A stretch of DNA of 64,000 nt from Chloroflexota bacterium (GCA_003169735.1 PNAP01000025.1:179-64178); one strand, 5' to 3'; shown: positions 3,855-56,444, counted from the stretch's first letter. Notes: generated by a model not told the origin, from the sequence alone. Numbers and translations: made by a program.

Positions 3855-3997
3855 GGGCGGCGAGGATAGCGCAGCGGGCCCGGGCCGGCCGCTTGACACG
3901 CCGGCCGCTCGACAGCCGAGTCGATATGACCGAGGAGTAGCATGCCCGACATCGGGCGCCGACCCGGCAGCCCGGCGCAGCAAGGTGGGGCCTCGTC

Positions 3998-5131: not shown

Positions 5132-5192
5132 GGCCGGCCGGGTCGCCGCGGCCGCACGGCCCCGACTTCCTGTTATCCTCGCTGTCCGCCGC

Positions 5193-5269
5193 GGGCCCGT
5201 GGTGTAGCGGCCCAACATGCCAGCCTGTCACGCTGGAGATCGCCGGTTCGAATCCGGTCGGGCCCGCCA
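5193..5269 (+). tRNA. tRNA-Asp (anticodon GTC)
   Basis: Cloverleaf readable directly. Acceptor stem GGGCCCG/CGGGCCC, U8, anticodon stem CCAGC/GCTGG with loop CTGTCAC (GTC), T-loop GGTTCGAAT, discriminator G, and an encoded CCA. Confidence 0.9.
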
Positions 5270-5351
5270 GCTTCTTCTTGACCGTATTCTTTCGCGTCTC
5301 CGTGGCGCCGGTTTCCACCGCCACTGACGCCTTGCGCCGTCCGCGGTTACG

Positions 5352-7175
5352 ATGCGGCGCGATGTCCCGACCGTCTCGACGCAACGGCCGATGAGCGCGC
5401 CTGATCGCACGCCGTCCCCAGGCGGCACCACCACGAACGGCGGAACCAGCGCCACGACGTCCAAGGTCCTGGTCATCATCCTGGTGGTCCTCTTCCTGGT
5501 CGCGAGCGTCGGCTTCTACTTCATGGTTCAGGACCAGCCGCTGCTCGACGCCACGCCGACCCCATCGGGGCTGACGGGCGCCGCCTCGCCGACACCGACC
5601 GGCGCACCGGGCACGAGTTCGGCCCCGAACGCGAGCGGCAGCCCGGTAGCGACTCCGCCCGCCAGCGGTGGCGCCAACCCGACGCCGACCCCGAGCGGCA
5701 GCCCGTCACCGACGCCGACGACCCCGCCGGCGCTGGTCGAGACGGACATGCCGATCGTTCCCGTGGTCGACTTCTGGGGAACGGACCCCGGGCTTTCCAA
5801 GAGCGACTTGACGGACGCGCTCGAGGGTCACAGTGCGAAGTACCCGACGGTCATCGTCCCGACCGAGGATCGCGGCGCCATCGCCGCCGCGGCCGGCGTG
5901 ACCATCGCCGACTCTGTCCAGAGCGGCGACGCGGCGGCCATCGATGCCGCGGTCAAGACCGGGGCTCTCGGCTTCCTGCGCGCGGCCGACGTCACCGCGC
6001 TCGTCCACGCGGTCCCGCTCGAGGGCAAGCAGCTCTTCGGCGAGGACCGCGTCAAGAGCGTCGCCGACTGGCCGCTCACCATCCATGTCACCGAGACAGC
6101 GGACCGCGTCTGGGACCAGTCCGCAACGTGGACACTGCTGGCGGGCGGCGACATGATCCTCGACCGCGGCATCTACGCGCGGGTCGTCAACCAGCACAAG
6201 GGTCTGAACTACCCGTTCGATGGTGGCACGGCCGTGGTCACCGGCCGGCATTGCTGTGGCACGTACTTCGGCTACGGGGCGTTCGACGTGCCCGACTTCC
6301 ATCTCACCGGCAACGCTGGCGCCGTTCGGTCGCTCGTCCAGAACGCCGACCTCGCCATCGCCAACCTGGAAGACCCGACGCCCGACAACTGGATCTTCCA
6401 CGTCTTCGGCATCCCATTCTCGGGTGACCCGGCGCTCCTCCAGATGTTCACCAACGCCGGTATCGACTGGGTGACGATCGCCAACAACCACATCGACGAT
6501 TACGGCGCGTCGGGCATCAAGGACACCATGCGCCACCTGCCCGAGTACGGCCTCCAGTTCGCCGGAGCGGGCCTGAACATCGACCAGGCCAGCCAGTACT
6601 CGGTGCTCGACGTGCACGGCGTCAAGGTCGCCATCCTGCCCTGCGTGGCGGTCTTCCCCTCGGAGTGGGCGAAGGGGTCCTCCAAGGCCGGCGGCATGCC
6701 GTGCACCGATCCACGGATGATCCCCAACATCCAGAAGGCCGCGGCGGAGGACGACTTCGTCATCGTCTTCCCCCACTGGGGCATCGAATACACCCTCGTG
6801 CCCATCGATTCCGAGCGGAAGCTGGCCGCCCAGTTCATGGCCGCCGGCGCGGACCTGATCCTCGGCGCGCACCCGCATGTCGCGCAGGCGGTCGAGGACA
6901 TCAACGGCAAGCTGGTCTTCTACTCGATGGGCAACTTCGTGTTCGACCAGAACTGGGCCGAGATCACCATGGAAGGCCTGCTCGTGGAATCGACCTTCGA
7001 GGGCAAGCACCTCATGCAGACGCAGATGCTGCCCATCATCGATGCCGATCAGTCCCAGCCCAACCTGCTCGACCCGAACGGCTCGGGCAAGATCGTCCTG
7101 CAACGGATGGAGAAAGCGTCGCATGCCCTCGGCGGGCATGGCGTCAGCGACGTCGACCGACCCCGTATCGCATGA
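5352..7175 (+). CDS. CapA family protein (PGA_cap metallophosphatase-like), membrane-anchored, paralog 1
   Basis: N-terminal TM helix, Pro/Thr-rich linker, then a CapA domain with ANNHIDDYG (GNHE-like), FPHWGIEY and FYSMGNFVFDQ motifs. The ATG at 5391 is an alternative start. Confidence 0.8.
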   Translation: MRRDVPTVSTQRPMSAPDRTPSPGGTTTNGGTSATTSKVLVIILVVLFLVASVGFYFMVQDQPLLDATPTPSGLTGAASPTPTGAPGTSSAPNASGSPVATPPASGGANPTPTPSGSPSPTPTTPPALVETDMPIVPVVDFWGTDPGLSKSDLTDALEGHSAKYPTVIVPTEDRGAIAAAAGVTIADSVQSGDAAAIDAAVKTGALGFLRAADVTALVHAVPLEGKQLFGEDRVKSVADWPLTIHVTETADRVWDQSATWTLLAGGDMILDRGIYARVVNQHKGLNYPFDGGTAVVTGRHCCGTYFGYGAFDVPDFHLTGNAGAVRSLVQNADLAIANLEDPTPDNWIFHVFGIPFSGDPALLQMFTNAGIDWVTIANNHIDDYGASGIKDTMRHLPEYGLQFAGAGLNIDQASQYSVLDVHGVKVAILPCVAVFPSEWAKGSSKAGGMPCTDPRMIPNIQKAAAEDDFVIVFPHWGIEYTLVPIDSERKLAAQFMAAGADLILGAHPHVAQAVEDINGKLVFYSMGNFVFDQNWAEITMEGLLVESTFEGKHLMQTQMLPIIDADQSQPNLLDPNGSGKIVLQRMEKASHALGGHGVSDVDRPRIA

Positions 7176-8968
7176 CGAGACGGGATCCGAGCGTCCCTTC
7201 TCGACCGCAGGCGACGCCGCGACACGATCCGCGCCTCCCCCGCGCACCCCGCAACGGGCCGGCCATCGGCCAGATCCTGGTCGCGGTCACCTTCCTGGCG
7301 ATGCTCGTCGGCACGGCCGGGTTCGTTTTCGCCGCCCTGCATCCAGGTCCGTCGCCGAAGCCCGCGCCATCCGGTCTGACCGCTGCCGGCACCACACCGG
7401 GCCCGACCTCGCCGGGTACGAGCGCGCCGGGGTCGAGCGTGGCGGCCGCGGACCAGCCGGACTCTGCGCCACCGTCCGGATCGGCGCCTTCGGGTGCGCC
7501 GGCACCATCTGACTCAGCGTCCCCAGGGCCCACCGCGACGCCGACGCCGGCGCCGACGCCCGGTTCGGGCGGATCGCTGATGCCCATCGTGCCGGTGGTG
7601 AGTTTCTGGGACGTCGGGCCGGGTCTATCCCGCGCCGACCTGACCGCCGCGCTGCAAGGTCAGAGCAGCCGCTATCCCACCGTCATCGTGCCCAGCGCCG
7701 ATCGTGACGCCATCGCCGCGGCACTTGGCGTGACCATCGCCGATGCGGTCACGAGCGGCACTGCGGACGACATCCGCGCCGCGGTCAAGGACGGCGCCCT
7801 CGGCTTGCTGCGTGCAACGGACGTCACGCCGCAGGTGCGCGCGCTGCCGCTCGACGGCAAGGACCTGTTCGGCAACGACCGCGTCGCCAAGACCGCCGAT
7901 TGGCCGCTCTCGATCCCCATCGCCGACGCGTCAGCAGCAGCCTGGGACCAGGGCGCGTCGTGGACGCTGGTCGCCGGTGGCGACATCGTGCTAGACCGGG
8001 GCACCTACCTGAAGGTCGTCAAGGACGGCAAGGGCGTCACCTACCCCTTCGATGGTGGGACCGCCCAGGTGACCGGCCGCCACTGTTGCGGCTGGTTCAC
8101 CGAACTGGGCAAATACGACATCCCGGATTACGTCCAGACGGGCAACGCGGGGGTCGTCCGATCGCTCGTCAGCGGCGCCGACCTGACCATCGCCAACCTC
8201 GAGGACCCGACTCCCGACGATTGGGTCTATCACGCTCACGGCCTGCCGTTCTCGGGCGATCCGGCTCTCCTGTCGATGCTCTCGGGCGCCGGCATCGACT
8301 TCGTCACCCTCGCGAACAACCACATCGAGGACTACGGCACCAGCGGCATCAAGGACACTGTCAAGCACCTGCCACAAGCCGGCCTCGCGTTCGCTGGTGC
8401 CGGACTCGATCTCGGCCAGGCCCAGCAGCCGGGCGTGCTCACCGCCGACGGTCAGACGGTCACCATCCTGCCCTGCGTGGCGGTCGATCCGAACGTCTTC
8501 GCCACCGCGAAACGCTCGGGCGGCCGGCCGTGCGATGACCCCCAGCTCATCCCCGACATCCGGGCCGCGGCGGCCAAGCCGGGCGTGGTCATCGTCTTCC
8601 CGCACTGGGGCACCGAGTACGTGTACCCGCCTTCGGGCCTTCAACGCAGCTTCGCCAAGCACTGGCTGGCGGCCGGCGCCGACCTGGTCCTCGGCTCCGG
8701 ACCGCACATCGCCGGCGCGATCGGCGATTTCGGCGGCAAGCTCTGCATCTTCTCGATGGGCAACTTCCTGCTCGACCAGAACTGGGCCGAGATCACGATG
8801 GAAGGGCTGCTCGTGGAGGTCACGTTCAACGGCGACCAGGTCGTCCAGACGCGCCTTCACCCGACGCTGATCCTGGACCTCACCCAGCCCAACCTGCTCG
8901 ACCCGGAGACCACCGCCGTCGTCTACGGGCGGATCGAGAAAGCTTCGAAAGGCATGCTCGACTTCTGA
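7172..8968 (+). CDS. CapA family protein, paralog 2
   Basis: Collinear with paralog 1 along the whole CapA domain (ANNHIEDYG, FPHWGTEY, FSMGNFLLDQ); own TM helix plus PT-rich linker. The start ATG overlaps the paralog-1 stop (ATGA at 7172-7175). It is the internal portion of ORF 6665..8968. Confidence 0.8.
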   Translation: MTRRDPSVPSRPQATPRHDPRLPRAPRNGPAIGQILVAVTFLAMLVGTAGFVFAALHPGPSPKPAPSGLTAAGTTPGPTSPGTSAPGSSVAAADQPDSAPPSGSAPSGAPAPSDSASPGPTATPTPAPTPGSGGSLMPIVPVVSFWDVGPGLSRADLTAALQGQSSRYPTVIVPSADRDAIAAALGVTIADAVTSGTADDIRAAVKDGALGLLRATDVTPQVRALPLDGKDLFGNDRVAKTADWPLSIPIADASAAAWDQGASWTLVAGGDIVLDRGTYLKVVKDGKGVTYPFDGGTAQVTGRHCCGWFTELGKYDIPDYVQTGNAGVVRSLVSGADLTIANLEDPTPDDWVYHAHGLPFSGDPALLSMLSGAGIDFVTLANNHIEDYGTSGIKDTVKHLPQAGLAFAGAGLDLGQAQQPGVLTADGQTVTILPCVAVDPNVFATAKRSGGRPCDDPQLIPDIRAAAAKPGVVIVFPHWGTEYVYPPSGLQRSFAKHWLAAGADLVLGSGPHIAGAIGDFGGKLCIFSMGNFLLDQNWAEITMEGLLVEVTFNGDQVVQTRLHPTLILDLTQPNLLDPETTAVVYGRIEKASKGMLDF

Positions 8969-9014
8969 CCCAGACGGCGACCGGGGCGCGCGAAGGCCTC
9001 CGTGCACGAGAAAA

Positions 9015-9039
9015 GGCCTCGACCCTTGCGGGCCGAGGC
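9015..9039. terminator. Hairpin between convergent capA-2 and S53 peptidase genes (likely bidirectional terminator)
   Basis: GGCCTCGACCC-ttgc-GGGCCGAGGC forms a 10-bp stem with one mismatch. On the minus strand it is followed by TTTTCTCG. Confidence 0.5.
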
Positions 9040-9068
9040 TTCCCAATGGGGATGTTCGAGGGTCGGCG

Positions 9069-11336
9069 TCAGCAGGAGGTGCCGACGCGGTAATCCGAGC
9101 CGGGGCCGGCGCTGTCGTCCGGCTCGAGCAGGCCGCCGGCGGGCGTGCCGACCGAAGCGTAGGTCTGGGCCCCGGGCCCGGACAGCGCGGCGCTTTGCGC
9201 CGGTGCTCCGACGGTACTGAGCGGCGTGGAGATGGTGATGAACCCATTCGCAAGGTCCATCGAGCCCGTCGCCGTGCCAACGTTGTTGAAGAGCGAGCCG
9301 CCGGTCGCCGTCGTATCGACCGTCCCGTAGCTGTAATCGACCAGCAGGGTCGGGTCGTTCGGATTAGGCGTCGTGCCCGGATACTGCGCGCCGAGGTAGT
9401 ACTCGGTGCCGCCTGACTGCCAGGTGGCATACCAGTTGTCGCCATCACCGCCGAGGCCGGGATGGCCGACGGGATCGCTGTTCAGGCTGACCATGCGCAG
9501 TACGGTCGTGACGTTCGTGGCATCGCTGCTGAGGCCCATGGCCCGGATGTCCATCGCGTCGACGTTGCCGTTGGATGCGATCGGATGCGAGTCGCCGACC
9601 GGGTCCTTGAGGACGCGGCACGAAGGCGATGGCACCGTGGCCGGCGGTGTGGGGACCGTCGGCGGATGCGCGATGAGGGTGGCCGCCTGGGCGATGTCGA
9701 ACGAGCCGTTGCCCGTCGCGTAGTCCCAGCCGGGCGTGGCCGGATAGATGCCGACATCACCGAGGGTCACATCGTGGAAGCCGGCGCTGCCGGCCATCGC
9801 GTAGAGCCGCGGCGCGGCGAATCCGAGGGTGTTGCCGTTGACGGTCTGGAGTCGCGCCCAGACGCCGAGCGCGAGCGGCGACGCCAGGCTGGTGCCGCCG
9901 ATCTGTTCCGGCTGGCCGCCGACCATCACGGTCGCGCCCGTGTTCGGATCGGCGTCCATGGCGATGTCGGGCAGGTTCTTGCCGACGCACGCGACGGTGT
10001 CGACGCATGCCGAGCCGGTCGGCGGGGTCACGCCCTGCTGCCAGTAGGGCTGGTACTCGTAGAGGCTCGGCCCGCCGCCACCGGCGACCCAGGCGACTTC
10101 GTTGTTGTAGGTACCGTCGGCGTTGGCGAGCAGCGTCGTGCCGCCGACCGAGACGACATAGGAGGATGACGCGGGGTAGTTGACGTCGGGCACGCCGGCC
10201 GGGACGCCGTTGTTCGGCGCGACCGGGCAGAAGCTGCCGGTATCGCCGGATGAGGCGAACACGGTCTGGCCCTGCGCTGCGGCTTCGCTCATGACCTCGT
10301 CGTTGACGACCATGAAGCCATCCGCCCATGCCTGGTACTCGCACTCGCCGAAGCTGGCGCTGCCGGCGCGGGCGACGTCCTGGGTCACGAAACGGTTGAA
10401 CTCGAGGCCGATGTCCGCGTCGGTCAGCGACGTGGCGTCGTAGATGTAGAGATGCTTGACCGTGCCGGCGATGCCGGTCGAGGTCTGGGTATCCATGTCC
10501 CACTCGTCGGCACCGGCCGTGTCGGGGCTCTTGAGGCCGACCTTGACGACGCTGAACGGCACCTGCGGCAGCTTGTTGGTGGGGTCCGCCTCATAGCTTC
10601 GAAGGTCCTTGACCACCTGGGTCAGATCGCCTTCGGCGAAGATGGCGATGGGCGTGGCCGAGCCGCGCTTGGTGCCCCCGACGTCATAGACCTTCCAGAA
10701 GTCGCGCGCCGAATAGCCCTTGATGGTCGGCACGGTGTCGGCCGACGGCGCGGCCTGGTGCGGCAGCTGCATCGTCGAGGCGCTGGTCAGACCCAGGACG
10801 GCGACGACGGTGTTGCCCAGCGAGGTCGGCACGCGCGCCGGGCGCGAGTTGGCATAGATCTCGACGCCATGCTGGCGATAGCGCATCAGCGTCGTGTCGA
10901 AGGCGCTCTCCGCCTGCGACGCGGTGCCGTCGGCGGTCACGTAGAGACGGTTCGACTCGACGTGGACCTTGGTGAAGCCCTGCGATCGCAGGTAAGCGGC
11001 GACGGCCGCCGGTTGCGCGCTCGTCGGCCCGTAGCGCTCCGTGAACTGCGCCGGGGTCAGGTAGTGCCCGTACGCGGGCGTGCCCGCGATGGAGGCGTCG
11101 TGGGTGAACTGCGCCAGTCCGGCCTGATCGCGCAGGGCGAGACCGACCGAGATGCGCAGCGGCGTATTGGCCGCGAGCCGCCCAAGCGACGTCGCGTCGG
11201 CCAGGTTCTCCGTGCCGGTGCGCGTGGCGCTCCAGCCCGATGCCGCCGAGACGCCGGCGCCCGCGCCGAACGTCAGGACGAGCGCGAGACCCGCTCCCGC
11301 GAGCCCGAGGCGACTGATCCGATCCAAGGTGTCCAT
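9069..11336 (-). CDS. Secreted S53 family peptidase (sedolisin/kumamolisin-like) with C-terminal extra domain
   Basis: Signal peptide, pro-kumamolisin-like propeptide, catalytic segments SGDTGS and GGTSLASPLALG, and about 240 aa of extra C-terminal domain. ATG at 11336 with GGAGGA 14 nt upstream; the longer ORF start at 11474 has no signal peptide. Confidence 0.8.
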   Translation of the reverse strand: MDTLDRISRLGLAGAGLALVLTFGAGAGVSAASGWSATRTGTENLADATSLGRLAANTPLRISVGLALRDQAGLAQFTHDASIAGTPAYGHYLTPAQFTERYGPTSAQPAAVAAYLRSQGFTKVHVESNRLYVTADGTASQAESAFDTTLMRYRQHGVEIYANSRPARVPTSLGNTVVAVLGLTSASTMQLPHQAAPSADTVPTIKGYSARDFWKVYDVGGTKRGSATPIAIFAEGDLTQVVKDLRSYEADPTNKLPQVPFSVVKVGLKSPDTAGADEWDMDTQTSTGIAGTVKHLYIYDATSLTDADIGLEFNRFVTQDVARAGSASFGECEYQAWADGFMVVNDEVMSEAAAQGQTVFASSGDTGSFCPVAPNNGVPAGVPDVNYPASSSYVVSVGGTTLLANADGTYNNEVAWVAGGGGPSLYEYQPYWQQGVTPPTGSACVDTVACVGKNLPDIAMDADPNTGATVMVGGQPEQIGGTSLASPLALGVWARLQTVNGNTLGFAAPRLYAMAGSAGFHDVTLGDVGIYPATPGWDYATGNGSFDIAQAATLIAHPPTVPTPPATVPSPSCRVLKDPVGDSHPIASNGNVDAMDIRAMGLSSDATNVTTVLRMVSLNSDPVGHPGLGGDGDNWYATWQSGGTEYYLGAQYPGTTPNPNDPTLLVDYSYGTVDTTATGGSLFNNVGTATGSMDLANGFITISTPLSTVGAPAQSAALSGPGAQTYASVGTPAGGLLEPDDSAGPGSDYRVGTSC

Positions 11337-11360
11337 GGTTCGTGAGGTTCCTCCGCCTGT

Positions 11361-11381
11361 GACACCACGACCTGTGGTGTC
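11361..11381. promoter_or_regulatory. Perfect inverted repeat GACACCAC-N5-GTGGTGTC in the S53/trmB divergent intergenic region (candidate TrmB-type operator)
   Basis: 8-bp arms are exact reverse complements. A second, related palindrome CCACCA-ttgcaa-GTGGTG lies at 11410..11427. Confidence 0.35.
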
Positions 11382-11406
11382 GAGTGCGGCGCACCATAAC
11401 AGAGGG

Positions 11407-11436
11407 TTGCCACCATTGCAAGTGGTGTTGTAAAGT
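11407..11436 (+). promoter_or_regulatory. Candidate sigma70-like promoter for trmB (-35 TTGCCA, 18-nt spacer, -10 TAAAGT) overlapped by the second palindrome
   Basis: Hexamers read directly from the sequence. The CACCA/TGGTG palindrome sits in the spacer. Confidence 0.3.
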
Positions 11437-11475
11437 TCGCTCCAGCCCAGACGCAACCACCGCTCGGAGGGCACC

Positions 11476-12315
11476 GTGGAGATCCAGAACGAGGCCGAAC
11501 TGACCTCCCGACTGATCCAGCTCGGGCTGACCAGCTACGAGGCGAAGGCCTACCTCGCGCTCATCCGACGCGACTCGTTCACCGCGGCACAGGTCGCGCG
11601 GCAGGCGAACCTTCCCCGCCAGCGCATCTATGACGTGCTGGGCAGCCTCGTCGAGAAGGGCCTCGCGACCACGCGGCCCGGCGACGTCATCAAGTACGCG
11701 GCCACCGCTCCCGAACTCGCCATCGAGCGGCTGCTCGAGGCGCATCGCCAGAGCCTCGAAGGGCTGGAGATCGACGCGCGCGACACGATCAAGCGCATGA
11801 CCCCGGCCTGGGCGGCCGGGCAATCGCACACCGATCCGCTCGAGTACATCGAGGTGCTGCGTGACCGGCGCGCCATCAACGAGCGTTTCGGCGAGCTGCA
11901 GGCATCGGTGAAGAAGGAGATCCTCGTCTTCACCAAGCCGCCCTACGCCACGCCGCCGCAGGAGAACGACGAGGGCATCGCGGTCACCCAGACCCACACC
12001 GCCCGCAGCGTCTACGAGTTCTCCGCCTTCGATGATCCGCGCTTCATCGCTGGCGTCAAGGCGTTCGTGGCGGCCGGGGAGGAGGCCCGTTTCGTCCCCG
12101 AGCTGCCGCTCAAGCTGGTCATCATCGACGAGACCATCGTCATGTTCGGCATGGAGGATCCGGTCGCCGGCACGACCGAACTGACCATCGTCGTCGTCGA
12201 ACACCCGTCGCTTGCCAAGACACTGAAACTGTCGTTCGACGCGGTCTGGGCATCGGGGCTGACATTCGAAGAGGCGCAGCAGCGTCTCCAGGATCGGCAA
12301 CTCGAACCGGCGTAG
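11476..12315 (+). CDS. TrmB family transcriptional regulator
   Basis: N-terminal wHTH LGLTSYEAKAYLALIRRDSFTAAQVARQANLPRQRIYDVLGSLVEKGL and a TrmB-like C-terminal sensor domain. GTG start with GGAGGG Shine-Dalgarno 5 nt upstream. Confidence 0.8.
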   Translation: MEIQNEAELTSRLIQLGLTSYEAKAYLALIRRDSFTAAQVARQANLPRQRIYDVLGSLVEKGLATTRPGDVIKYAATAPELAIERLLEAHRQSLEGLEIDARDTIKRMTPAWAAGQSHTDPLEYIEVLRDRRAINERFGELQASVKKEILVFTKPPYATPPQENDEGIAVTQTHTARSVYEFSAFDDPRFIAGVKAFVAAGEEARFVPELPLKLVIIDETIVMFGMEDPVAGTTELTIVVVEHPSLAKTLKLSFDAVWASGLTFEEAQQRLQDRQLEPA

Positions 12316-12347
12316 GCAGGCGCCACACAAGCACAGGAGATGACGAG

Positions 12348-15068
12348 ATGAGGATCCGCGTCGCGGCCGCCCTGGTCGCCCTCCTCGCAGTGGGGATCGT
12401 GGCCGCGCCGACGGTAGCCGCCGGAGGCGTAGCCGCCATCGGCAAGACCGCCCATCCGAAGCCCGCGGCCGACGGAGCGACGCCGTTCCGCGACGGCCTT
12501 GCGGACCTGCTCGCTCACCCGGAGCGTGTCGACGCGCGCGTCCCGTCACTCATCGCCGGCTACACCGCGGGTGAGGTGCCCGTGCTGGCCAAACTGCGCC
12601 GCCAGCCGACGACGAGCGATCTCCGTCAACTGCGACACCTCGGCGCGCGCGTCCTGCGCACGTACGTGACCATCCCGGTCGTGGCGTTGTCTGGCCAGCC
12701 GTCGGCGATCACCGCCGTGGCGCAGCTCGCGTGGGTGCGCTGGATGGTGCCGATCGAAGTCGTCCAACTGCTGTCCGAGCCCGAGGTCGATCAATCGAAC
12801 CCACCCACCGGCGGCCCCATCGACGTCGGCGTGCCCGCGCTCTGGGACGAGGGCATGACCGGTCAGGGCGTGACCATCGCCGTCCTCGACACGGGCGTGG
12901 ACATGACCCATCCCGATCTCGACGACAACGATTTCCGCGCGTGGGGCGATCCACCCAACGCCCCGGTGCTGACCAACGGGCCTAAGGTGATCCAGGCGCG
13001 CAATTTCAACGAGGGCGCATGCGCCGTCCCCGACAGCGGCGCCTTCGACGGACACGGCCACGGCACGCACGTTGCGGCCATCGCGGCGGGGACCGGCGAG
13101 GGCGATCCGACCACCTCGAGCGACGACGGCCTCCACATGGGCATGGCCCCGGACGCGACGCTGGCGGTCGCCAAGGTCCTGACCGATGCCGGGATCGGCG
13201 TCAACAGTGACCTCCTGGCCGCGCTCGAGTGGGCAGCCATGCCCGCCGGCAGCGGATCACCGACCTGCCCGGCCGTCGGAGCGCAGGTGGTCAACACCAG
13301 CCTCGGCACCGACTCGCGCCCGACCCGCCTGAACTCCGGTCATGACACCGACCTCGTCAGCCAGATGGTCGATACCCTGGCAACGAAGTACGGGACGGTC
13401 TTCGTCGCCGCGGTCGGCAACAGCGGCCCGTACATCGGCAGCGCGCTCGAGGCACCGGGCGGTGCCTCGCAGGCCCTTTCGGTGGGCGCCACGGCCAAGG
13501 ATTGGGACGTCGATCACGATGCGACCGCGGCCGGCGACACGTGTTCCGGCTATCAGCACACGCAGCCTACCTGCCCGGCTGACGCCCCCGGCACGCAGCG
13601 CACGTCACTCGCCGAGTTCTCGTCGCGCGGCCCTCTCGAGGGTCGCCTCCTGAAGCCCGATGTGGTCGCGCCCGGCTACGACATCGTCTCGGCGCAGGCC
13701 GCGGAGGGCGCCGCCCTCGCCTCCAACGATCTCAACATGGGCACGCGCACCGACCCGTACTACGCCACCGCGAGCGGCACGTCGATGGCGTCGCCGGCGA
13801 CGGCGGGCGTGGTCGCGCTGTTGCTCGACGGCTATCACGACCGATATGGCAAGGCACCGCAGGGACCTTCCGGCGTGGCTGGGTTCAAGGCGAGCGCCGA
13901 GGTCCTCGTCCGTGCCGCGCTGATGAATACGGCCGACTCCGGGCTCTACGAGTCGCGCTGGATCCTGACGACCGATGACGGCACGGTCTCATCGGCAGCG
14001 GGGTGCCCCGTGCCCGACCCGCTCGCGCCGACGGTGTGCAGTTTCGCCGACATCATCACCGGTGGACTGACCGGTTCGCTGGTCTTGGCCGGGACGCGCA
14101 ACGGCCCCACCGACCCGTATGTCGGTCCACTCGCCGAAGGCGCCGGCAAGATCCAGCCGGCCGCCGCGATCGCGGCGCTGCGCGACGGCGTGGTCATCTA
14201 CCGCGCTGCGAGTCACGCATCGGCGGCGACCCTTCCCGGCGATACCGCGTACCAGGGCGCGTGGATGATCACCAACGCCGTCCCGGGCAAGATCGAGACG
14301 GATCCGTTCATCCTGCGCAACGCTCCCGGCGCCCCGGCCACGGTCGCACGCTTCCGGTTCGCGTCTGGCAACCCGAGCGACGGCAGCCACGCCATCCCGA
14401 CCGGTTCGGCGCCGGGCGCATGGACGATCCAGCTGCCGAAACCGACCGCCGTGCGCGCCGGCGGCAGCGCCAAGGTGGGCTTCAGCATCACGCCGCCCCC
14501 GGGCACGCCCGCTGGCACCTACTCGGGCGCCGTCATCGTCGAGGTCGCCAACGGGCAGCATCTCCGCATCCCCGTCCTGGCGACGGTCGCCCTTCACGAC
14601 CCCGACCTGGCCGCCGGCAACGCGCCGAGCCCCCGATGCGAGATCGTCTCGGACCACGACGTCTTCGCCAAGGGCGACACGGTCTGGCCATCGGCGGCTG
14701 GTGTCGCCAACGGCGCCATGTCCGACTGGCTCGTGTATCCCGTCGACCTGGCGCCCGGCCTCGCCTACGCGCGCTTCTCGGTCTACGACGCCGCGGCCGG
14801 CGACGAGACCTACGACCTGTACCTCTACGCGAGCGACTTCTCGCTCGTCTCGAGCACGCACCCGTTCGCTGCGCCGGGCGTGACCGACGTGAACGCCAAC
14901 AACGCGCGTGGTCCATCGACGCAAGCCGATCCGCAGGTCCTCGTCCTCGATCACCCGACGTCCACGAGGTACTACATCGCCGTCAGCCGGGCGCGCGTGG
15001 GCACGGTCGACGCGATCAACGGCGACTTCGGAGCCTTCGTGCTGACACTCGACGAGGTGGGGCCCTGA
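12348..15068 (+). CDS. Secreted S8 family serine peptidase (subtilase) with large C-terminal beta-sandwich extensions
   Basis: Signal peptide; catalytic triad motifs VLDTGVD (Asp), HGTHVAA (His) and GTSMASP (Ser); about 400 aa of additional C-terminal domains. Confidence 0.85.
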   Translation: MRIRVAAALVALLAVGIVAAPTVAAGGVAAIGKTAHPKPAADGATPFRDGLADLLAHPERVDARVPSLIAGYTAGEVPVLAKLRRQPTTSDLRQLRHLGARVLRTYVTIPVVALSGQPSAITAVAQLAWVRWMVPIEVVQLLSEPEVDQSNPPTGGPIDVGVPALWDEGMTGQGVTIAVLDTGVDMTHPDLDDNDFRAWGDPPNAPVLTNGPKVIQARNFNEGACAVPDSGAFDGHGHGTHVAAIAAGTGEGDPTTSSDDGLHMGMAPDATLAVAKVLTDAGIGVNSDLLAALEWAAMPAGSGSPTCPAVGAQVVNTSLGTDSRPTRLNSGHDTDLVSQMVDTLATKYGTVFVAAVGNSGPYIGSALEAPGGASQALSVGATAKDWDVDHDATAAGDTCSGYQHTQPTCPADAPGTQRTSLAEFSSRGPLEGRLLKPDVVAPGYDIVSAQAAEGAALASNDLNMGTRTDPYYATASGTSMASPATAGVVALLLDGYHDRYGKAPQGPSGVAGFKASAEVLVRAALMNTADSGLYESRWILTTDDGTVSSAAGCPVPDPLAPTVCSFADIITGGLTGSLVLAGTRNGPTDPYVGPLAEGAGKIQPAAAIAALRDGVVIYRAASHASAATLPGDTAYQGAWMITNAVPGKIETDPFILRNAPGAPATVARFRFASGNPSDGSHAIPTGSAPGAWTIQLPKPTAVRAGGSAKVGFSITPPPGTPAGTYSGAVIVEVANGQHLRIPVLATVALHDPDLAAGNAPSPRCEIVSDHDVFAKGDTVWPSAAGVANGAMSDWLVYPVDLAPGLAYARFSVYDAAAGDETYDLYLYASDFSLVSSTHPFAAPGVTDVNANNARGPSTQADPQVLVLDHPTSTRYYIAVSRARVGTVDAINGDFGAFVLTLDEVGP

Positions 15069-15980
15069 CTACGCCTCGGCCGGGAGGCCCTCGAAGAGAT
15101 CCGTTTCGGGGATGCGCACACCGACGTCCGAGACGCGCAGGGTGAAGTCCTCGGTCGGCTGGACCGCCCGCCACTCATCCGGGGAGAGCATCAGGAAGAA
15201 CCCGTCGGCGGGAAGTTGCGTCACGTGCTCGCGCATCGCGGCCAGCTTGGCCTCGAACGCGTCTGAGACGTCCACGCGCGTGGTCACCGGACCCTGCGCA
15301 TCGGCCATCTTCTTCATGTGGGCTTCGCGGCCGGCCCGCTGCTCGTCGGTCTCGTCCTCGGGCGGCGTCCACCAGGTCTTGACGCCCTTCTCCCTGAGCA
15401 GGTCCTGGAACTCCTGCCGACGGGCGATGTCGAGCACGGTCTCGTACAGCTTGAGAGGCTGCCACGGCTCCAGGCCGTCCTTGAGTTGCTCGGGATACGC
15501 GGCCGAGTCGCCGGCGCGTTCGAAGGCGCGCTTGGTCGTGGTCGCGGCGCGGATGTGGTCGGGATGGCCATAACCGCCGAAATCGTTGTACGAGACGAGC
15601 ACCTGCGGGCGGTACCGGCGGATGAGGAGCACCAGGCGACCGGCGGCCTCGTCCTCGTCGGCCTGCCAGAAGCTGCGCTTGTCCCCGTTCTGTGGCGTGC
15701 CCATCATCCCCGAGTCGTGATAGCCGAGCCACTCGTGCTCGATCGGGCCGAGGCGGGCCAGGGCGCGTTTGAGTTCCTCGGCGCGGATCTCGGCCAGTCG
15801 GGCGTGGTTCTCGGGCGTGTCCATCTCGGGCACGACGATCTCGCCGTGCTCACCGCCCGTGCAGGTGACGCAGATGACGCGGTCGCCCGCGTGCGCGTAG
15901 CGCGACATGACGCCGCCGGTGGCGATCGTCTCGTCGTCGGGGTGGGCATGGACGGTCATGAGGGAGTGTCGATCAGCCAT
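15069..15980 (-). CDS. mca: Mca/MshB (LmbE/PIG-L) family zinc amidase; mycothiol S-conjugate amidase-like
   Basis: TVHAHPDDE, TGGEHGEI, YNDFGGYGHPDHI and C-terminal ETDLFEG align along the whole length with mycobacterial Mca. The stop abuts the convergent S8 gene stop. Confidence 0.75.
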   Translation of the reverse strand: MADRHSLMTVHAHPDDETIATGGVMSRYAHAGDRVICVTCTGGEHGEIVVPEMDTPENHARLAEIRAEELKRALARLGPIEHEWLGYHDSGMMGTPQNGDKRSFWQADEDEAAGRLVLLIRRYRPQVLVSYNDFGGYGHPDHIRAATTTKRAFERAGDSAAYPEQLKDGLEPWQPLKLYETVLDIARRQEFQDLLREKGVKTWWTPPEDETDEQRAGREAHMKKMADAQGPVTTRVDVSDAFEAKLAAMREHVTQLPADGFFLMLSPDEWRAVQPTEDFTLRVSDVGVRIPETDLFEGLPAEA

Positions 15981-16833
15981 GGTCGGATGCTACCCGAGGT
16001 GCGGCGCGGACCGTCGGCCAGAGGGCCAGATCGATCTCCGGGGCGAGTGCAGCGAGTTCGGCAAGGTCGGGCGCATAGGCAGCGGCGAGCGTTGCGCGGA
16101 GGGCGGCCGACAGCTCGAGCTTGTGCCCGGTGGTCGGGTTGACTGGACGCTCGAACGCGCTGGCCGGCGGGCTGAACGGGCGGAGGCCGAGGAAGTCGAA
16201 CGTCCTGGCCAGCTCGGCGGCCGGGTCAGCCCGGCAACGCTCGTACTGGAGGATCAGCACCTGATCGTGCGGCAGGGCCCGGAAGACCCGCCGGAGCTGC
16301 TGCGAGTAGAGGCCGCGCTGGAAGGCGCCCATCGCACCCAGCCGGTCGAGCGGCGACCGCGACAGCTCCTCGGTGTGGGCCATGCTCGACCGGTAGCGCT
16401 CCACGGGGTCGCGCAGGAGGATCAGGATGCGTGCCTCGGGCGCTGCGCGGTGGATGAGCGCCGGAGCCCAGAAGTCGATCATGTAGCCGGGCGTCCACTC
16501 GCCGGAACGGCCGCCCGCCGGCCGCGGGAAGTAGCGGGCGTAGAGCGCCGCGTCCGCGGTCGTGAAGGGGCGCTCCCAGTAGCCGTCGAAGAAGTGCAGC
16601 TCCTTCGGCTGGCTGGCGATGCGATGCACGTCGGGGTGCTCGTGGATGAGCGCGCTCCACCAGGACGTGCCCGCCTTCTGCGCCCCGATGCCCACGAAAT
16701 CGGGCGGTCCGGCGACCCAACCGCGCGGCGTTCCTGGCGGGGCGCCGGGTCCGGGCGGCCTGTGGCCGCGCCATCGCCGCACGGTTCGCAACCCGCGGAC
16801 GGCCTGTTGGCGCACCCGTGCCGATGTCGTCAT
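15973..16833 (-). CDS. PAPS-dependent sulfotransferase family protein, paralog A
   Basis: 5'-PSB loop GIGAQKAGTSWW and 3'-PB motif LLRDPVERYRS. The ATG at 16833 overlaps the stop of paralog B (ATGA), and the stop overlaps the mca start by 8 nt. It is the internal portion of ORF 15973..17070. Confidence 0.7.
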   Translation of the reverse strand: MTTSARVRQQAVRGLRTVRRWRGHRPPGPGAPPGTPRGWVAGPPDFVGIGAQKAGTSWWSALIHEHPDVHRIASQPKELHFFDGYWERPFTTADAALYARYFPRPAGGRSGEWTPGYMIDFWAPALIHRAAPEARILILLRDPVERYRSSMAHTEELSRSPLDRLGAMGAFQRGLYSQQLRRVFRALPHDQVLILQYERCRADPAAELARTFDFLGLRPFSPPASAFERPVNPTTGHKLELSAALRATLAAAYAPDLAELAALAPEIDLALWPTVRAAPRVASDHG

Positions 16834-17720
16834 CGGCCGAACCCGCTCCACAGTGACGGGTCGAAGTCGTCCGGCAGCAGCGCGGCGAGGCGCGCGTTCT
16901 CCGGCGCGTAGGCGTCGGCCAGGGCGGCGCGCTGGTCGGGGCGCAGCTCCGTCTTGGCGACGCGCGATTCGTTGACGCGCCGATCGACGTCGATGGCGTC
17001 GGCGGCGTCCGGATCGAGCCCCAGGAATGCGAAGGTCCGACGCAGCTCTCCGCGTGGATCGCGGACGCAACGCTCGAACTGGAGCACCAGCACCTGCTCA
17101 CGCGGGAAGATCGACCACAGGCGCAGCAGCTGGTCGGCGTAGCAACCTCGCTGGAAGCCGCCGTTGGCGGCGGCGCGCGCCGTCCAGGCAAGCGTCAGGC
17201 GGTTCTCGGTCAGCGTCACGCCGGAGCGGAAGCGCTCGATCGGGTCGCGCAGGAGGACCAGCAGCCTGGCCTCGGGGGCCGCCCGCCGGAGCAGCGCCGG
17301 GATCCAGAAATCGACCATGTAGCCGGGCGTCCACTCGCCGGCCCTGCCACCCGCCGGTCGCGGGAAGAAGCGCGCGTAGGTCGCGGCGTCTGCCTCGCGA
17401 TAGCTGCCGTCCCAGAAGCGGTCGAAGAAGTGGACCTCCTTCGGGACGCCTTCGGCGCGATGGACGAGGGGATGGGTGTGGATCAGCTCATCCCACCAGG
17501 TCGTCCCCGAGCGGGCGGTCCCGACACCGACGAAATCGGGCGGAGCGACGATCCAGCCGGGTGGCGTGGCCGGAGGCTCGTTCCGGGCGGGCGGGGCGGC
17601 CCCACCACCACTTCGAGCGAGGCCGCTGATGCCGCGCGCGATCTTTCGGACGCCGGTCACCGGGCGCGGGGCGAGGGATGCATCGCGGCGATGATACGGG
17701 AGGGCTTCGGGGGCTAGCAT
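16830..17720 (-). CDS. PAPS-dependent sulfotransferase family protein, paralog B
   Basis: GVGTARSGTTWW and LLRDPIERFRS; the last 296 codons of ORF 16830..18962. The upstream 400 codons of that ORF are antisense to the CoA-transferase gene and are rejected. ATG at 17720. Confidence 0.65.
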   Translation of the reverse strand: MLAPEALPYHRRDASLAPRPVTGVRKIARGISGLARSGGGAAPPARNEPPATPPGWIVAPPDFVGVGTARSGTTWWDELIHTHPLVHRAEGVPKEVHFFDRFWDGSYREADAATYARFFPRPAGGRAGEWTPGYMVDFWIPALLRRAAPEARLLVLLRDPIERFRSGVTLTENRLTLAWTARAAANGGFQRGCYADQLLRLWSIFPREQVLVLQFERCVRDPRGELRRTFAFLGLDPDAADAIDVDRRVNESRVAKTELRPDQRAALADAYAPENARLAALLPDDFDPSLWSGFGR

Positions 17721-17738
17721 CGGCGCGTGCCTGACCCC

Positions 17739-18989
17739 ATGAGCGACGCGCGCCCGGAAGGTCCGTCGCGCGGCCCACTGGCCGGCCTCCTGGTTTGCGA
17801 CCTCTCGACCGTGCTCGCCGGCCCGTACTGCACGATGCTCCTGGCGGATCTCGGGGCGGAAGTCATCAAGGTCGAGCCGCCGACCGGCGATCCGACCCGA
17901 CTGTATGGCCCGCCCTACGTCGGTGGCACGGCCGGCGGCGATCCGGGCGAATCGGCCTACTACCTCTCGATCAACCGCAACAAGCGCGGCATCGCGCTCG
18001 ATCTCAAGTCCGACGCCGGCCGCGAGGTCCTGCGGCGGCTCATCGCCCGCAGCGATGTGCTCGTCGAGAACCAGCGGCCGGGCGGCATGGACCGGCTCGG
18101 ATTCCCCGACGCCGAGTTGGAGCGCCTCGATCCCCGCCTGGTCCGACTGTCGATCAGCGGTTACGGTCAGTCCGGCCCGGACGCCGACAAGCCCGGCTTC
18201 GACTTCATCGCCCAGGCGGTCTCCGGACTGATGTCGATCACCGGCCAGCCCGATCGGGCCGACGGACAGCCGACCAAGGTGGGCGTGGCCATCTCCGACC
18301 TGACCACGGGGATGCTCGGTGCAGTGGCCATCCTGGCGGCGCTGCGTGAGCGCGACGTTTCCGGGCGCGGCCAGCGCATCGATCTGAGCCTGCTCGACGC
18401 GACCGTCTCGTGGCTCATCAATCAGGCCGCGAACTACCTCGTGGGCGGCGTGGTGCCGGGGCGGATGGGCAACCTGCATCCCAACATCACGCCCTACGAG
18501 ACGTTCCCGACTGCCGACGGGGAGATCGCCGTGGCGGTCGGGTCGGAGCGGCAGTGGGTGAGGTTCTGCGAGGCTCTCGGTGTCGCGGCGTTGGCCGCCG
18601 ACCCGCGATTCGCCACCAACGGCGCGCGTGTCGCGAACCGTGACGCGCTCCGGGCGCTGTTGGCGCCGCTGTTCGCGGCACGCACCTCGGCCGTGGCGCT
18701 GGCCGAGCTGCAGGCGGCCGACGTGCCCTGCGGCGCGGTCCGCGACCTCGCCCAGGTCTTCGCCGATCCGCAGGTCATCGCCAACGAGATGGTGGCGACG
18801 GTCGAGCATCCGACGATCGGTCCGCTGCGCCTGACGGGCATCCCCTACAAGTTGAGCGCGACGCCGGGGAGCATCCGCCGACCGCCGCCGCTCTTCGGCG
18901 AGCACACCGACGAGATCCTCGCCGAACTCGGATACGCGCCGGCCGAGATCGCCACGCTCCACGCCGAGGGCGCTGCGCGGCGCCGTTAA
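17739..18989 (+). CDS. CoA-transferase family III (CaiB/BaiF) protein
   Basis: N-terminal PLAGLLVCDLSTVLAGPYCTMLLADLGAEVIKVEPP signature. The ATG at 17739 is preferred over the GTG at 17727. Divergent from sulfotransferase B with only an 18-bp gap. Confidence 0.8.
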   Translation: MSDARPEGPSRGPLAGLLVCDLSTVLAGPYCTMLLADLGAEVIKVEPPTGDPTRLYGPPYVGGTAGGDPGESAYYLSINRNKRGIALDLKSDAGREVLRRLIARSDVLVENQRPGGMDRLGFPDAELERLDPRLVRLSISGYGQSGPDADKPGFDFIAQAVSGLMSITGQPDRADGQPTKVGVAISDLTTGMLGAVAILAALRERDVSGRGQRIDLSLLDATVSWLINQAANYLVGGVVPGRMGNLHPNITPYETFPTADGEIAVAVGSERQWVRFCEALGVAALAADPRFATNGARVANRDALRALLAPLFAARTSAVALAELQAADVPCGAVRDLAQVFADPQVIANEMVATVEHPTIGPLRLTGIPYKLSATPGSIRRPPPLFGEHTDEILAELGYAPAEIATLHAEGAARRR

Positions 18990-25391: not shown

Positions 25392-26234
25392 GTGATCCTC
25401 ACCCCGGGTAGTGACGTCGCTCTCCTGCTGGTCAGCGTCGCGGCCGGGCTCCTCGGTGCGCTGGGCGGGGTCGGCGGCGGTCTCATCGTCGTGCCGGTCC
25501 TGACCATCATCTTCGGCGTCGACATCCACCTCGCTGCTGGGGCCAGCATCGTGGCAGTCATCGCGACCAGCTCCGGAGCTGGCGTCGCGTTCGTCCGCGA
25601 CGGACTTGCCAACATCCGCATCGCGATGTTCCTCGGGTGGGCGACCGCCATCGGAGCCATCGTCGGGGCACTGGCCGCATCGGAGCTGCCGGCATCGGTG
25701 CTGCTCCTGGTGCTGGCCGCCGTCCTGCTCGTCTCGGTTGCGATGCAGCTGCTCCGGCTGAGCGAGGAACCAGGATCGGAGCCGCTGCCCGCGCACGACC
25801 GCTTCCGCCTGTCCGGGTCCTACTACAGCATCCGGCTGCGAAGCGAGGTGCCCTACGCCAGCCGACGCGTGCCGCTCGGGCTCGCCCTGATGGCGGTGGC
25901 AGGCGTCGTGTCCGGGCTGCTCGGCATCGGATCGGGTGCCGTGAAGGTGCTCGCCATGGACGGCGCGATGCGGCTGCCCATGAAGGTCAGCTCCGCCACC
26001 AGCAACCTGATGATCGGTGTGACCGCGGCGGCATCGGTCGGCATCTACCTGGCCCGCGGCTACGTGGACGCCCGTCTGGCGGCCCCGGTCGCCCTGGGCA
26101 TCCTGATCGGCGCTCTCGTCGGTGCCCGGATGCTCGGCCGGCTCACCAACCGCAACGTCCGCGTGATCTTCATCCCGGTGCTCCTTGCCATCGCCGTCGA
26201 GACGCTCCTGCGCGGCCTGGGGGTCGGCGCATGA
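25392..26234 (+). CDS. TauE/SafE family sulfite/anion exporter (DUF81)
   Basis: Two-repeat 4+4 TM topology with Gly-rich TM starts (GALGGVGGGLIVVP, GLLGIGSGAV). Confidence 0.8.
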   Translation: MILTPGSDVALLLVSVAAGLLGALGGVGGGLIVVPVLTIIFGVDIHLAAGASIVAVIATSSGAGVAFVRDGLANIRIAMFLGWATAIGAIVGALAASELPASVLLLVLAAVLLVSVAMQLLRLSEEPGSEPLPAHDRFRLSGSYYSIRLRSEVPYASRRVPLGLALMAVAGVVSGLLGIGSGAVKVLAMDGAMRLPMKVSSATSNLMIGVTAAASVGIYLARGYVDARLAAPVALGILIGALVGARMLGRLTNRNVRVIFIPVLLAIAVETLLRGLGVGA

Positions 26235-31185: not shown

Positions 31186-31289
31186 AGGGTCGTCGGCGCG
31201 AACGGGTCGGCTGACCAGCGTGTCGGCGCTGGGGTATCATCGGCCGCTATCCAGCTTGCATAGTGTTTATGCACAGGGAGGCTCGGAGC

Positions 31290-37200: not shown

Positions 37201-37292
37201 TCGGACGAGGCGCGGCCCGGCCTCGGTCAGGACATCGACCCACAGGTGCTCGCTCTGGAGGCGTCGCGTCGGACGACCGAAGTAGTCCCCGC

Positions 37293-39737: not shown

Positions 39738-39791
39738 GGCCCGATGATAGGCTTCCGAGCCTCAGTCGAGACGTGGCACGGAGGGAGGCCG

Positions 39792-40769: not shown

Positions 40770-40773
40770 CGGG

Positions 40774-41154: not shown

Positions 41155-41255
41155 TCGAGGGGAGCGGCGAGGTCGAGACATCGGTCGCGGGAGGCGCCGC
41201 TGCTGAAGCGGGCCTTGACGCGGCGCGAGCAGCCCAGTCGTTCCGCGCCGACGCG

Positions 41256-52601: not shown

Positions 52602-52614
52602 CGTGGGTCTCCCG

Positions 52615-54255: not shown

Positions 54256-54256
54256 G

Positions 54257-56349: not shown

Positions 56350-56444
56350 GAACTCCCTCCTCTGAACGGCCTCTTGGAGATAGTACAGGGGCGCGCTACT
56401 CGCTGGCAGCGCGCCCCTGCAGTATTCAGGCCTTCAAACGACCG

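Follow-up and report, generated by a model that had tools for sequence, protein, structure and literature searches.

Whether two sulfotransferase genes and an amidase gene in close succession form one dedicated operon, or only share a site, is the question raised by positions 15069-17720 of a 64,000-nucleotide stretch of DNA from a Chloroflexota bacterium (GCA_003169735.1, PNAP01000025.1:179-64178), analysed over its whole length and referred to as the window. Three co-directional open reading frames (ORFs) occupy the minus strand there in the order stB, stA, amidase: stB and stA encode B-type and A-type sulfotransferases dependent on 3'-phosphoadenosine-5'-phosphosulfate (PAPS), and the third gene a protein of the MshB/Mca family (PIG-L/LmbE). 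A reading made from the sequence alone (the sequence-only reading) had described them as an operon translationally coupled to the amidase and divergent from a family III CoA-transferase. The three genes, the quoted motifs and the overlaps of 4 and 8 nt are all present in the sequence, with overlapping stop and start codons between the successive genes (ATGA for stB/stA and ATGGCTGA for stA/amidase), and the GC contents at third codon positions (0.87, 0.87 and 0.90) indicated coding-type bias in a genome of 70% GC. Comparison with related loci suggested, with a confidence slightly above even, two neighbouring expression units beside the CoA-transferase, not one dedicated three-gene operon. The amidase is a stand-alone gene, older and widely conserved, and keeps a promoter-like signal of its own whether or not sulfotransferases are present; the operon claim was for this reason overstated.

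In a coupled three-gene operon, one promoter before stB and none within the cluster would be expected. A conserved TAGCAT, followed by 6 nt and ATG, precedes the amidase; hexamer, spacer and start codon span 15992-15978 and lie inside the last codons of stA, where they may form an internal promoter. At the 13 other sulfotransferase-bearing loci, the amidase ATG is in every case preceded, with unchanged spacing, by a corresponding hexamer (TAGCAT, GATCAT, TACCAT or CACAAT), and the signal was also found in most loci without sulfotransferases. The stA stop codon lies 12-800 nt before the amidase in other lineages, and the ATGGCTGA overlap in the window results from a non-conserved C-terminal tail of stA, which runs through the putative amidase promoter to the first stop codon. 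The 8-nt overlap is real only if the amidase starts at ATG 15980, and it is lineage-specific, being absent elsewhere. This start codon was backed by an alignment with MshB from residue 3 and by orthologues at 100% coverage; gene callers start the amidase at ATG 15959, which leaves a 13-nt gap after stA instead of an overlap.

Signals of the same type were found at the other end of the cluster, where the start codons had to be revised. Gene callers and the sequence-only reading both used ATG 17720 for stB (296 amino acids), leaving 18 bp between the start codons of stB and the CoA-transferase. This ATG is not conserved: related loci (L004, L031 and L034) have AAGGCTAG there, upstream of an in-frame stop. 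The start of stB is most likely GTG 17660 (276 amino acids), on the basis of orthologue alignment and of a conserved mini-ORF that overlaps it, and comparative evidence points to GTG 17727 as the start of the CoA-transferase. The distance is then 66 bp, and these hold two back-to-back -10-like hexamers (Table 1); the plus-strand TAGCAT at 17715-17720 contains, on the minus strand, the very ATG earlier taken as the start of stB. TATCAT, followed after 6-7 nt by ATG or GTG, was found in every sulfotransferase-bearing lineage, and the hexamer and its spacing are identical in L003, L004, L006, L007, L008, L031 and L034. A script check revealed a mini-ORF of 3, 8 or 10 codons in 7 of 8 lineages; its peptide is not conserved, and its TGA overlaps the NTG start codon of the long stB reading frame (GTGA, TTGA or ATGA). 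The eighth is L003, in which the leaderless ATG opens stB directly.

At loci without sulfotransferases, a back-to-back hexamer pair, 17-18 nt apart, directly precedes the CoA-transferase and the amidase. Of 38 loci, 27 had TAnCAT with 6-7 nt and a start codon on the amidase/sulfotransferase side, with 2 more recognised by eye, and 23 had it on the CoA-transferase side; the rate in a shuffled-sequence null was 0.6%. The strict motif (TA[N][ACG]AT + 6-7 nt + RTG) has only 4 matches among 3628 RTG triplets in the window. Three stand at first start codons, those of the amidase (ATG 15980), the CoA-transferase (GTG 17727) and a GH94 gene (39737), and the fourth, in our own reading of the sequence, is the mini-ORF ATG 17683. 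A looser TANNNT also occurs at several other first start codons (35071, 46573, 46595 and 31167). These results suggest that the TAnCAT signals are leaderless transcription starts for three units (CoA-transferase, amidase and stB-stA), and the organism seems to use leaderless transcripts.

The triad itself is not peculiar to the window, as synteny in related genomes was found at 13 other loci (14 with the window); the refuting outcome named in the sequence-only reading, three genes syntenic in no related genome, thus did not occur. The arrangement CoA-transferase, divergent stB-stA-amidase recurs in L003, L004, L006, L007, L008, L031, L034 and L116, and was partly seen on the short contigs L005, L032, L033, L036 and L041. 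Scanning metagenomes for the amidase yielded 80 loci, 57 of them informative for the upstream gene: this was a directly divergent CoA-transferase (<300 bp) in 29, a CoA-transferase with a gap in 12, the sulfotransferases in 6 and something else in 10. The conserved core consists of the CoA-transferase and the divergent amidase, then a convergent PGA_cap gene and, further on, DUF885. In a neighbour-joining tree of the amidases, the sulfotransferase-bearing loci fall in one clade, with some loci lacking the sulfotransferases nested inside. On three long contigs (L002, L114 and L115), stB-stA is kept at the same chromosomal position beside PGA_cap, and both the amidase and the CoA-transferase are absent at the site. 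No MshB/Mca-like gene was found within 8 kb at any of 22 actinobacterial sulfotransferase loci, and the actinobacterial homologues showed no conserved partners beyond further sulfotransferases and occasional glycosyltransferase- or epimerase-like genes. Co-occurrence in independent lineages was thus not observed: the triad is confined to one Limnocylindrales clade, and pair and amidase each occur without the other. The adjacency of sulfotransferases and amidase, as traced in these sequences, is attributable to one insertion event and vertical descent, and as a single event gives no independent support for a shared function.

A divergent sulfotransferase hidden in the gaps of 370-3730 bp between CoA-transferase and amidase (12 loci) was considered and rejected, since a hidden Markov model (HMM) of 122 family members found none there, and no member of the family was found by this model in any gap or other upstream stretch. 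Where inspected, the insert in such gaps (loci within L060-L105) encodes a conserved hypothetical protein of ~250-290 amino acids on the opposite strand (for example, L065 4118-4996, L092 586-1407 and L105 1824-2648) with the motif ...VDFVAYAEDCxLSGRxxL...DRLTDMLN...RDELxLVHAxGPRG...MVPLT.... The site between CoA-transferase and amidase looks like a hot spot of gene insertion. The L003 amidase (8840-9721) contains multiple frameshifts, and L116 has frameshifts in most genes. The L003 gene was not accepted as a pseudogene, and hence as evidence of dispensability, because L003, like L116, is frameshifted elsewhere too and sequencing error is as likely; the frameshifts in both are probably long-read indel errors.

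The two sulfotransferases (56% identical) form a pair of considerable age. In a neighbour-joining tree, the A-type and the B-type proteins each form a clade; the two clades are sisters, agree in their inner branching order and are jointly sister to the Actinomycetota homologues, so that the duplication is older than the split of these Limnocylindrales lineages. Both copies are always kept together, in nearly every case overlapping by 1-4 nt or lying a short distance apart, and this retention would fit two non-redundant activities, on two positions of one acceptor or in a heteromer. One contig of a metagenome-assembled genome (MAG; GCA_003131785.1, PKVI01000121.1; L001) is 99.2-99.5% identical to the window in nucleotides over 12 kb, and carries a single 303-amino-acid sulfotransferase (8001-8912) where the window (15973-17720) has two. 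This gene is an exact chimera of approximately the first 390 nt of stB and the remainder of stA, with the crossover at the GEWTPGYM codons, a 26-nt stretch repeated exactly in both genes; it represents either an assembly collapse or a natural deletion by unequal crossover. The converse, that the two-gene form is an assembly artefact, was rejected, because the independent assemblies SRR7151625 and SRR7151653, which represent the same population, carry it and the A/B orthologue pairs are conserved.

From these observations, we propose the following history. The amidase, an MshB/Mca-family zinc deacetylase/amidase, would be an older gene of this bacterial class, with its own leaderless signal, and its back-to-back arrangement with the CoA-transferase in most relatives would be the ancestral core. 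The stB-stA pair would have arisen by duplication within Limnocylindrales and been inherited as a pair since. In one sub-clade, an insertion would have placed it after the back-to-back promoters and ahead of the amidase; the module with its mini-ORF may have taken over the ancestral promoter position, and the amidase retained or duplicated its own promoter. Some lineages would later have lost the pair, and one kept it while the amidase and the CoA-transferase vanished from the site. In the present arrangement, stB and stA would form a bicistronic unit of cytoplasmic, carbohydrate-type sulfotransferases of a 3-OST/NST-like clade, transcribed from the TATCAT -10 element as a leaderless mRNA, on which ribosomes may pass from the mini-ORF to stB and on to stA by termination-reinitiation at the NTGA and ATGA overlaps. 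Each sulfotransferase would use PAPS to sulfate a different position on a cytoplasmic acceptor that contains sugar. That this acceptor is a glucosamine (GlcN)-type product or substrate of the amidase is a tentative proposal, somewhat improbable on balance.

Several points weigh against two separate units. Read-through from stA into the amidase is likely because of the tight spacing and the absence of a terminator-like site, none having been found in 14900-18000 by a generic scan, and the ATGGCTGA overlap could give real coupling of stA and amidase in the window. A generic sigma-70 scan that required a -35 box found no promoter. The triad is co-directional over a wide divergence (sulfotransferases down to ~50-60% identity), as would also be expected if co-expression had been selected. 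Glucosamine residues are the target of the nearest sulfotransferases of solved structure, and the amidase family acts on amides of N-acetylglucosamine (GlcNAc) or GlcN, which hints at a common class of substrate. Furthermore, genomes without the amidase at this site may carry one elsewhere.

Both sulfotransferases matched Pfam Sulfotransfer_3 and Sulfotransfer_1 (stB: 5e-14 and 1.6e-13, 53.5 and 51.1 bits; stA: 5e-15 and 1.9e-13, 56.8 and 50.8 bits; gathering cut-offs of the two models, 27 and 22 bits), and Pfam and alignment agree with the sequence-only reading that both are PAPS-type enzymes with an intact 5'-phosphosulfate-binding (5'-PSB) loop and 3'-phosphate-binding (3'-PB) motif. The PSB loop, E-x-H-F-F-D and R-D-P-x-x-R-x-x-S are kept in both paralogues across orthologues, the latter two as EVHFFD and RDPIERFRS in stB. 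In an alignment of 38 A- and B-type sequences, E78, H80, F82 and D83, as well as R141, D142, P143, R146 and S149 of the 3'-PB motif, are invariant. We take the Glu, His and Asp of E-x-H-F-F-D to be the catalytic residues in 3-OST-1 and 3-OST-3, and those of ELHFFD in stA to be equivalent to E184, H186 and D189 of 3-OST-3. HFFD aligns with HFFD of 3-OST-3, and the equivalence of the Glu is motif-based, the HMMER alignment having a gap of 3 residues immediately before. The best PDB match of stA (phmmer) was human heparan-sulfate glucosamine 3-O-sulfotransferase 3A1 (3-OST-3A1; 2.4e-17), with further matches to 3RNL (3.8e-14), 3-OST-1 (~6e-11), 3-OST-5 and the N-sulfotransferase (NST) domain of NDST1 (4.6e-4).

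An AlphaFold2 model of stA from 38 family members (predicted local distance difference test score, 84.8; predicted template modelling score, 0.82) gave 81 PDB matches with E <= 0.001 in Foldseek, and the best 50 were all sulfotransferases. The top ranks were taken by 3RNL, 3-OST-3, NDST1 and 3-OST-1/5, with template modelling (TM) scores of 0.6-0.67; Stf9, Teg12 and CurM-ST were far down the ranking, Stf9 and Teg12 with TM scores of 0.35-0.47. Of the classes to be checked according to the sequence-only reading (Stf0, StaL/Teg or other), the answer from both sequence and fold is thus "other", namely heparan-sulfate 3-OST/NST-like. A StaL/Teg placement was rejected with StaL at E ~0.5 by sequence and Teg12 at Foldseek rank 45, and a Stf0 placement with no Stf0 match by PDB sequence and Stf9 at Foldseek rank 37. 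The 3-OST likeness leaves the substrate of these predicted sulfotransferases unfixed; further bacterial sulfotransferases that act on different acceptors, such as Stf9, resemble 3-OSTs too. No hydrophobic N-terminal segment is visible by eye in stA or stB, which makes a cytoplasmic location most likely for both; their pI values of 9.1 and 10.2 are basic.

Sulfation of Tyr or another residue of a peptide or protein, in the manner of tyrosylprotein sulfotransferases (TPSTs) or RaxST, is very improbable, in spite of TPSTs being the next-best structural group in Foldseek after the heparan-sulfate enzymes (E ~3e-6): their TM scores are 0.43-0.49, versus 0.6-0.67 for the latter, and the invariant E-x-H-F-F-D block is the 3-OST pattern, not that of TPSTs. 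The loop ARSGTT of stB resembles the TPST loop PRSGTT, which we counted for this alternative. Flp-type pilins would be a possible target, since the pair in L002 (4817-8846), L114 (4455-6852) and L115 (4626-6846) lies directly downstream of two Flp/Fap pilin genes, although no Flp gene stands beside the pair in the window or at triad-type loci. A radical SAM gene of lysine-2,3-aminomutase-like type lies upstream of these Flp genes; in the window (31215-32912), it is 14 kb distant.

The Arg in place of the canonical Lys in the PAPS loop of stB, noted in the sequence-only reading, is present and is not unusual, being the norm in the bacterial family. GVG[TS]ARSGTT is conserved in all B-type orthologues, and the actinobacterial homologues are mostly Q-R-[ASC]-G-T-T. 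Tyrosylprotein sulfotransferases have an Arg at this PSB-loop position, where it is a catalytic residue. An inactive or unusual enzyme was therefore rejected, the Arg being invariant in B-type orthologues and the majority state in actinobacterial homologues; by these alignments, it appears to be a family trait and does not point to a lost or altered function.

As had been proposed, the third gene is a member of the MshB/Mca (PIG-L/LmbE) family, by its Pfam match (PIG-L, 1.7e-27, above the gathering score), by NCBIfam, in which Mca ranked first and MshB second, and by full-length alignment with Mycobacterium tuberculosis MshB (PDB 1Q74, 1.5e-31). The scores of 242.5 bits for Mca (TIGR03446) and 213.6 bits for MshB (TIGR03445) are under the respective equivalog cut-offs of 277.15 and 224.35, and on these scores the protein is a predicted member of the MshB/Mca subfamily assignable to neither function. 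Its VHAHPDDE and GGYGHPDH align with H13/D15/D16 and Y142/H144/D146/H147 of MshB, and the residues aligned with R68 and D95 (Arg, DSG) are also kept. We take HPDD and HPDH to be the metal/catalytic site and R68 and D95 the GlcNAc-contacting positions of MshB.

The close homologues of these genes come from MAGs labelled Candidatus Limnocylindrales/Chloroflexota and from soil metagenomes. An actinomycete origin was rejected, as all close homologues are from Limnocylindrales/Chloroflexota MAGs; the next-nearest sulfotransferase homologues (41-52%) are found in Solirubrobacterales, Acidimicrobiaceae and other Actinomycetota. To our knowledge, mycothiol is known only from Actinomycetota, and we know of no report in Chloroflexota. 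Literature searches on mycothiol in Chloroflexi/Chloroflexota/Limnocylindria, and on LmbE or PIG-L together with a sulfotransferase, found nothing relevant. Among the ~40 window proteins scanned, no mshA, mshC or mshD and no other gene for mycothiol, inositol or PAPS synthesis was found, nor any glycosyltransferase; NRPS/PKS genes were likewise absent, as the sequence-only reading had stated. A mycothiol-conjugate scenario is weakened by the assignment of the host to Limnocylindrales (Chloroflexota) and by the amidase scores below the Mca and MshB cut-offs.

These results bear on the function of the triad; the likelihoods given for each alternative concern the acceptor, and overlap with the architectural reading. 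A single operon whose amidase and sulfotransferases share one GlcN-containing small molecule is rather unlikely. The amidase would de-N-acetylate a GlcNAc glycoside or cleave a mycothiol-type conjugate, followed by N- and/or O-sulfation of the GlcN unit thus exposed, or it would recycle the sulfated product. The co-directional genes with 4- and 8-nt overlaps and no terminator, the retention of the triad in 14 loci, the nearness of the sulfotransferases to glucosamine-specific heparan-sulfate enzymes including the NST domain of NDST1, and the MshB-aligned R68 and D95 residues and HPDD/HPDH metal site of the amidase all fit such a pathway. The comparative picture of the loci makes a dedicated sulfation-plus-amidase pathway less likely: the adjacency arose only once in evolution, sulfotransferases are missing beside most orthologues of the amidase (6 of the 57 informative loci carry them), the pair persists without an amidase at the site in L002, L114 and L115, and none is adjacent in the 22 actinobacterial loci. 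The promoter-like signal kept by the amidase and the lack of mycothiol, inositol and PAPS-synthesis genes in the window scan also count against it, as does the absence of fusion proteins among the top 120 homologues of either protein. A particular form of this pathway, a cytoplasmic bacterial N-deacetylase/N-sulfotransferase logic in which the amidase exposes or releases the amine-bearing GlcN unit of a pseudodisaccharide or glycoside and the paralogues sulfate two positions (N- and/or O-), would yield a new sulfated glucosamine metabolite of soil Chloroflexota, which might be a low-molecular-weight thiol in modified form or a precursor of one; we regard this as a speculative and quite unlikely outcome.

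Modification of an envelope glycan or glycolipid precursor, such as a sulfated polysaccharide or a lipid-linked sugar, with the amidase adjacency an accident at a permissive site, is also unlikely, with an appreciable minority chance. A sulfotransferase island in an uncultured Solirubrobacterales MAG (L009, CAWCRN010000026.1; 5211-15573) contains a homologue of stA/stB with a GT2-like glycosyltransferase gene and five Sulfotransfer_3 genes after it, and another Sulfotransfer_3 gene upstream of the homologue; L014 looks alike. This association of a homologue with GT2 and six more sulfotransferase genes agrees with a glycan acceptor, as do epimerase/glycosyltransferase-like neighbours in 6 actinobacterial loci (labelled by eye, unconfirmed by Pfam), although no glycosyltransferase, flippase or polysaccharide-export gene is near the pair in the window or at Limnocylindrales loci. 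The permissive site is consistent with the other unrelated genes taken up between CoA-transferase and amidase in 12 loci. The basic character of both sulfotransferases could be counted in its favour, but many Arg residues would be expected at 70% GC as well.

Table 1. Coordinates of genes, promoter-like signals and sulfotransferase motifs in the window.
Feature	Position	Strand	Remarks
stB, B-type PAPS sulfotransferase	16830..17660	minus	likely 276 aa; GC3 0.87
stA, A-type PAPS sulfotransferase	15973..16833	minus	286 aa
MshB/Mca-family (PIG-L/LmbE) metal-dependent deacetylase/amidase	15069..15980	minus	303 aa
Family III CoA-transferase, divergent neighbour	17727..18989	plus	Pfam CoA_transf_3, 9.8e-136
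-10-like TATCAT	17691..17696	minus	7 nt upstream of mini-ORF ATG; putative stB-stA promoter
-10-like TAGCAT	17715..17720	plus	6 nt before GTG 17727; putative leaderless CoA-transferase promoter
-10-like TAGCAT	15987..15992	minus	6 nt before amidase ATG 15980; putative own leaderless promoter
Putative leaderless mini-ORF MHPSPRAR*	17657..17683	minus	ATG 17683; TGA 17659-17657 overlaps stB GTG 17660 (GTGA)
stA 5'-PSB loop GIGAQKAGTS	16663..16692	minus	G48, G50, G55 and T56 invariant; K53 nearly
stB 5'-PSB loop GVGTARSGTT	17499..17528	minus	Arg at canonical Lys position
stA ELHFFD	16585..16602	minus	pattern-matches EPHFFD of 3-OST-3
stA 3'-PB motif RDPVERYRS	16387..16413	minus	aligned to RDPVTRAIS of 3-OST-3

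The divergent gene is a family III CoA-transferase, as the sequence-only reading had proposed, by its Pfam match; against the NCBIfam model of succinate-glutarate CoA-transferase it scored 402.6 bits, under the cut-off of 750. On the other side of the cluster, a block at 9069-15068 encodes a kumamolisin-like protease (with a pro-kumamolisin activation domain), a TrmB-family regulator and a 906-amino-acid S8 subtilase, and occupies the stretch next to the amidase that in most relatives is taken directly by PGA_cap; the stop codon of the convergent S8 gene (15068) abuts that of the amidase (15069) with zero intergenic bases. Positions 1037-8968 contain the neighbourhood common to most related loci, which comprises DUF885, a threonine aldolase-like beta-eliminating lyase, a 377-amino-acid protein without a Pfam match and, in tandem, two PGA_cap (CapA-like) proteins that are extended far at the N-terminus. 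A membrane protein of the TauE/SafE family (sulfite/organosulfonate exporter; 25392-26234) lies 7.7 kb from the sulfotransferases, in the near-identical MAG too. An 1155-amino-acid MMPL transporter fused to CrtC/AttH-type lipocalin domains stands beside an OsmC-like protein (26604-30071), and this pair was also found in L003. Two sugar-utilisation clusters, neither adjacent to the sulfotransferases, comprise GH1, GH94 (cellobiose/chitobiose phosphorylase type), GH130 and an MFS transporter (35071-42515), and a SIS-domain protein, GH3, two ABC permeases and a solute-binding protein (51528-58037).

If the sulfotransferases and the amidase cooperate, they would be a pointer to a novel sulfated amino-sugar metabolite in Limnocylindrales, a soil lineage that is abundant yet hardly cultured, and, if coupled, a prokaryotic parallel to the N-deacetylation and sulfation of heparan sulfate. 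On present evidence, two conserved bacterial 3-OST/NST-like proteins are candidates for glycan sulfation biocatalysis, and the locus illustrates that tight gene overlap can come merely from insertion beside an independently expressed gene. It also offers a comparative example of putative back-to-back leaderless promoters and a start-stop-coupled mini-ORF outside Actinomycetota. A separate novelty would be the conserved leaderless mini-ORF, which appears to hand ribosomes via the NTGA overlap to stB, a gene without a Shine-Dalgarno sequence. The correction of start codons in automatic annotation is of specialist interest.

The proteins belong to known families, and the cluster is lineage-specific and reproduces no known system. 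The amidase shares the PIG-L domain and metal motifs with MshB (Rv1170) and Mca (Rv1082) of the mycothiol pathway, whereas its conserved partners here are the CoA-transferase and PGA_cap, not msh genes. Pairings of a GlcNAc de-N-acetylase with a PAPS sulfotransferase are known from NDST in heparan sulfate and from NodB and NodH in Nod factors, and represent the same logical pairing of activities as the amidase with stA/stB, on which the speculative N-deacetylase/N-sulfotransferase reading is based. The deacetylases of these systems are not known to be PIG-L proteins, NodB belonging to CE4. Among the sulfotransferases, NodH is not the closest to those of the window, for which a faint match to NoeE (E 0.0084) was seen. 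StaL and Teg12 (glycopeptide) and Stf0 and Stf9 (mycobacterial) share the PAPS-sulfotransferase superfamily fold with stA/stB and are not close. The sulfotransferase 3RNL from Alicyclobacillus acidocaldarius, a bacterial soluble enzyme of the same clade as stA, was the top Foldseek match (5.1e-11, 26% identity) and the second-best distinct protein by sequence; it is from another phylum and gives no substrate information, and we know of no published function for it. Heparan-sulfate 3-OST-1, -3 and -5 and the NST domain of NDST1 differ from stA/stB, which are bacterial proteins of ~280 amino acids with no signal anchor and only 25-30% identity to them, in being Golgi type II membrane proteins, whereas stA and stB have no visible N-terminal hydrophobic segment; heparan sulfate is not made by the host, and stB has Arg instead of Lys in the PSB loop. 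The two proteins are accordingly placed near this clade and are not classed as heparan-sulfate sulfotransferases. In spite of these differences, stA and stB share with the heparan-sulfate enzymes the same PSB loop, E-x-H-F-F-D and R-D-P-x-x-R-x-x-S.

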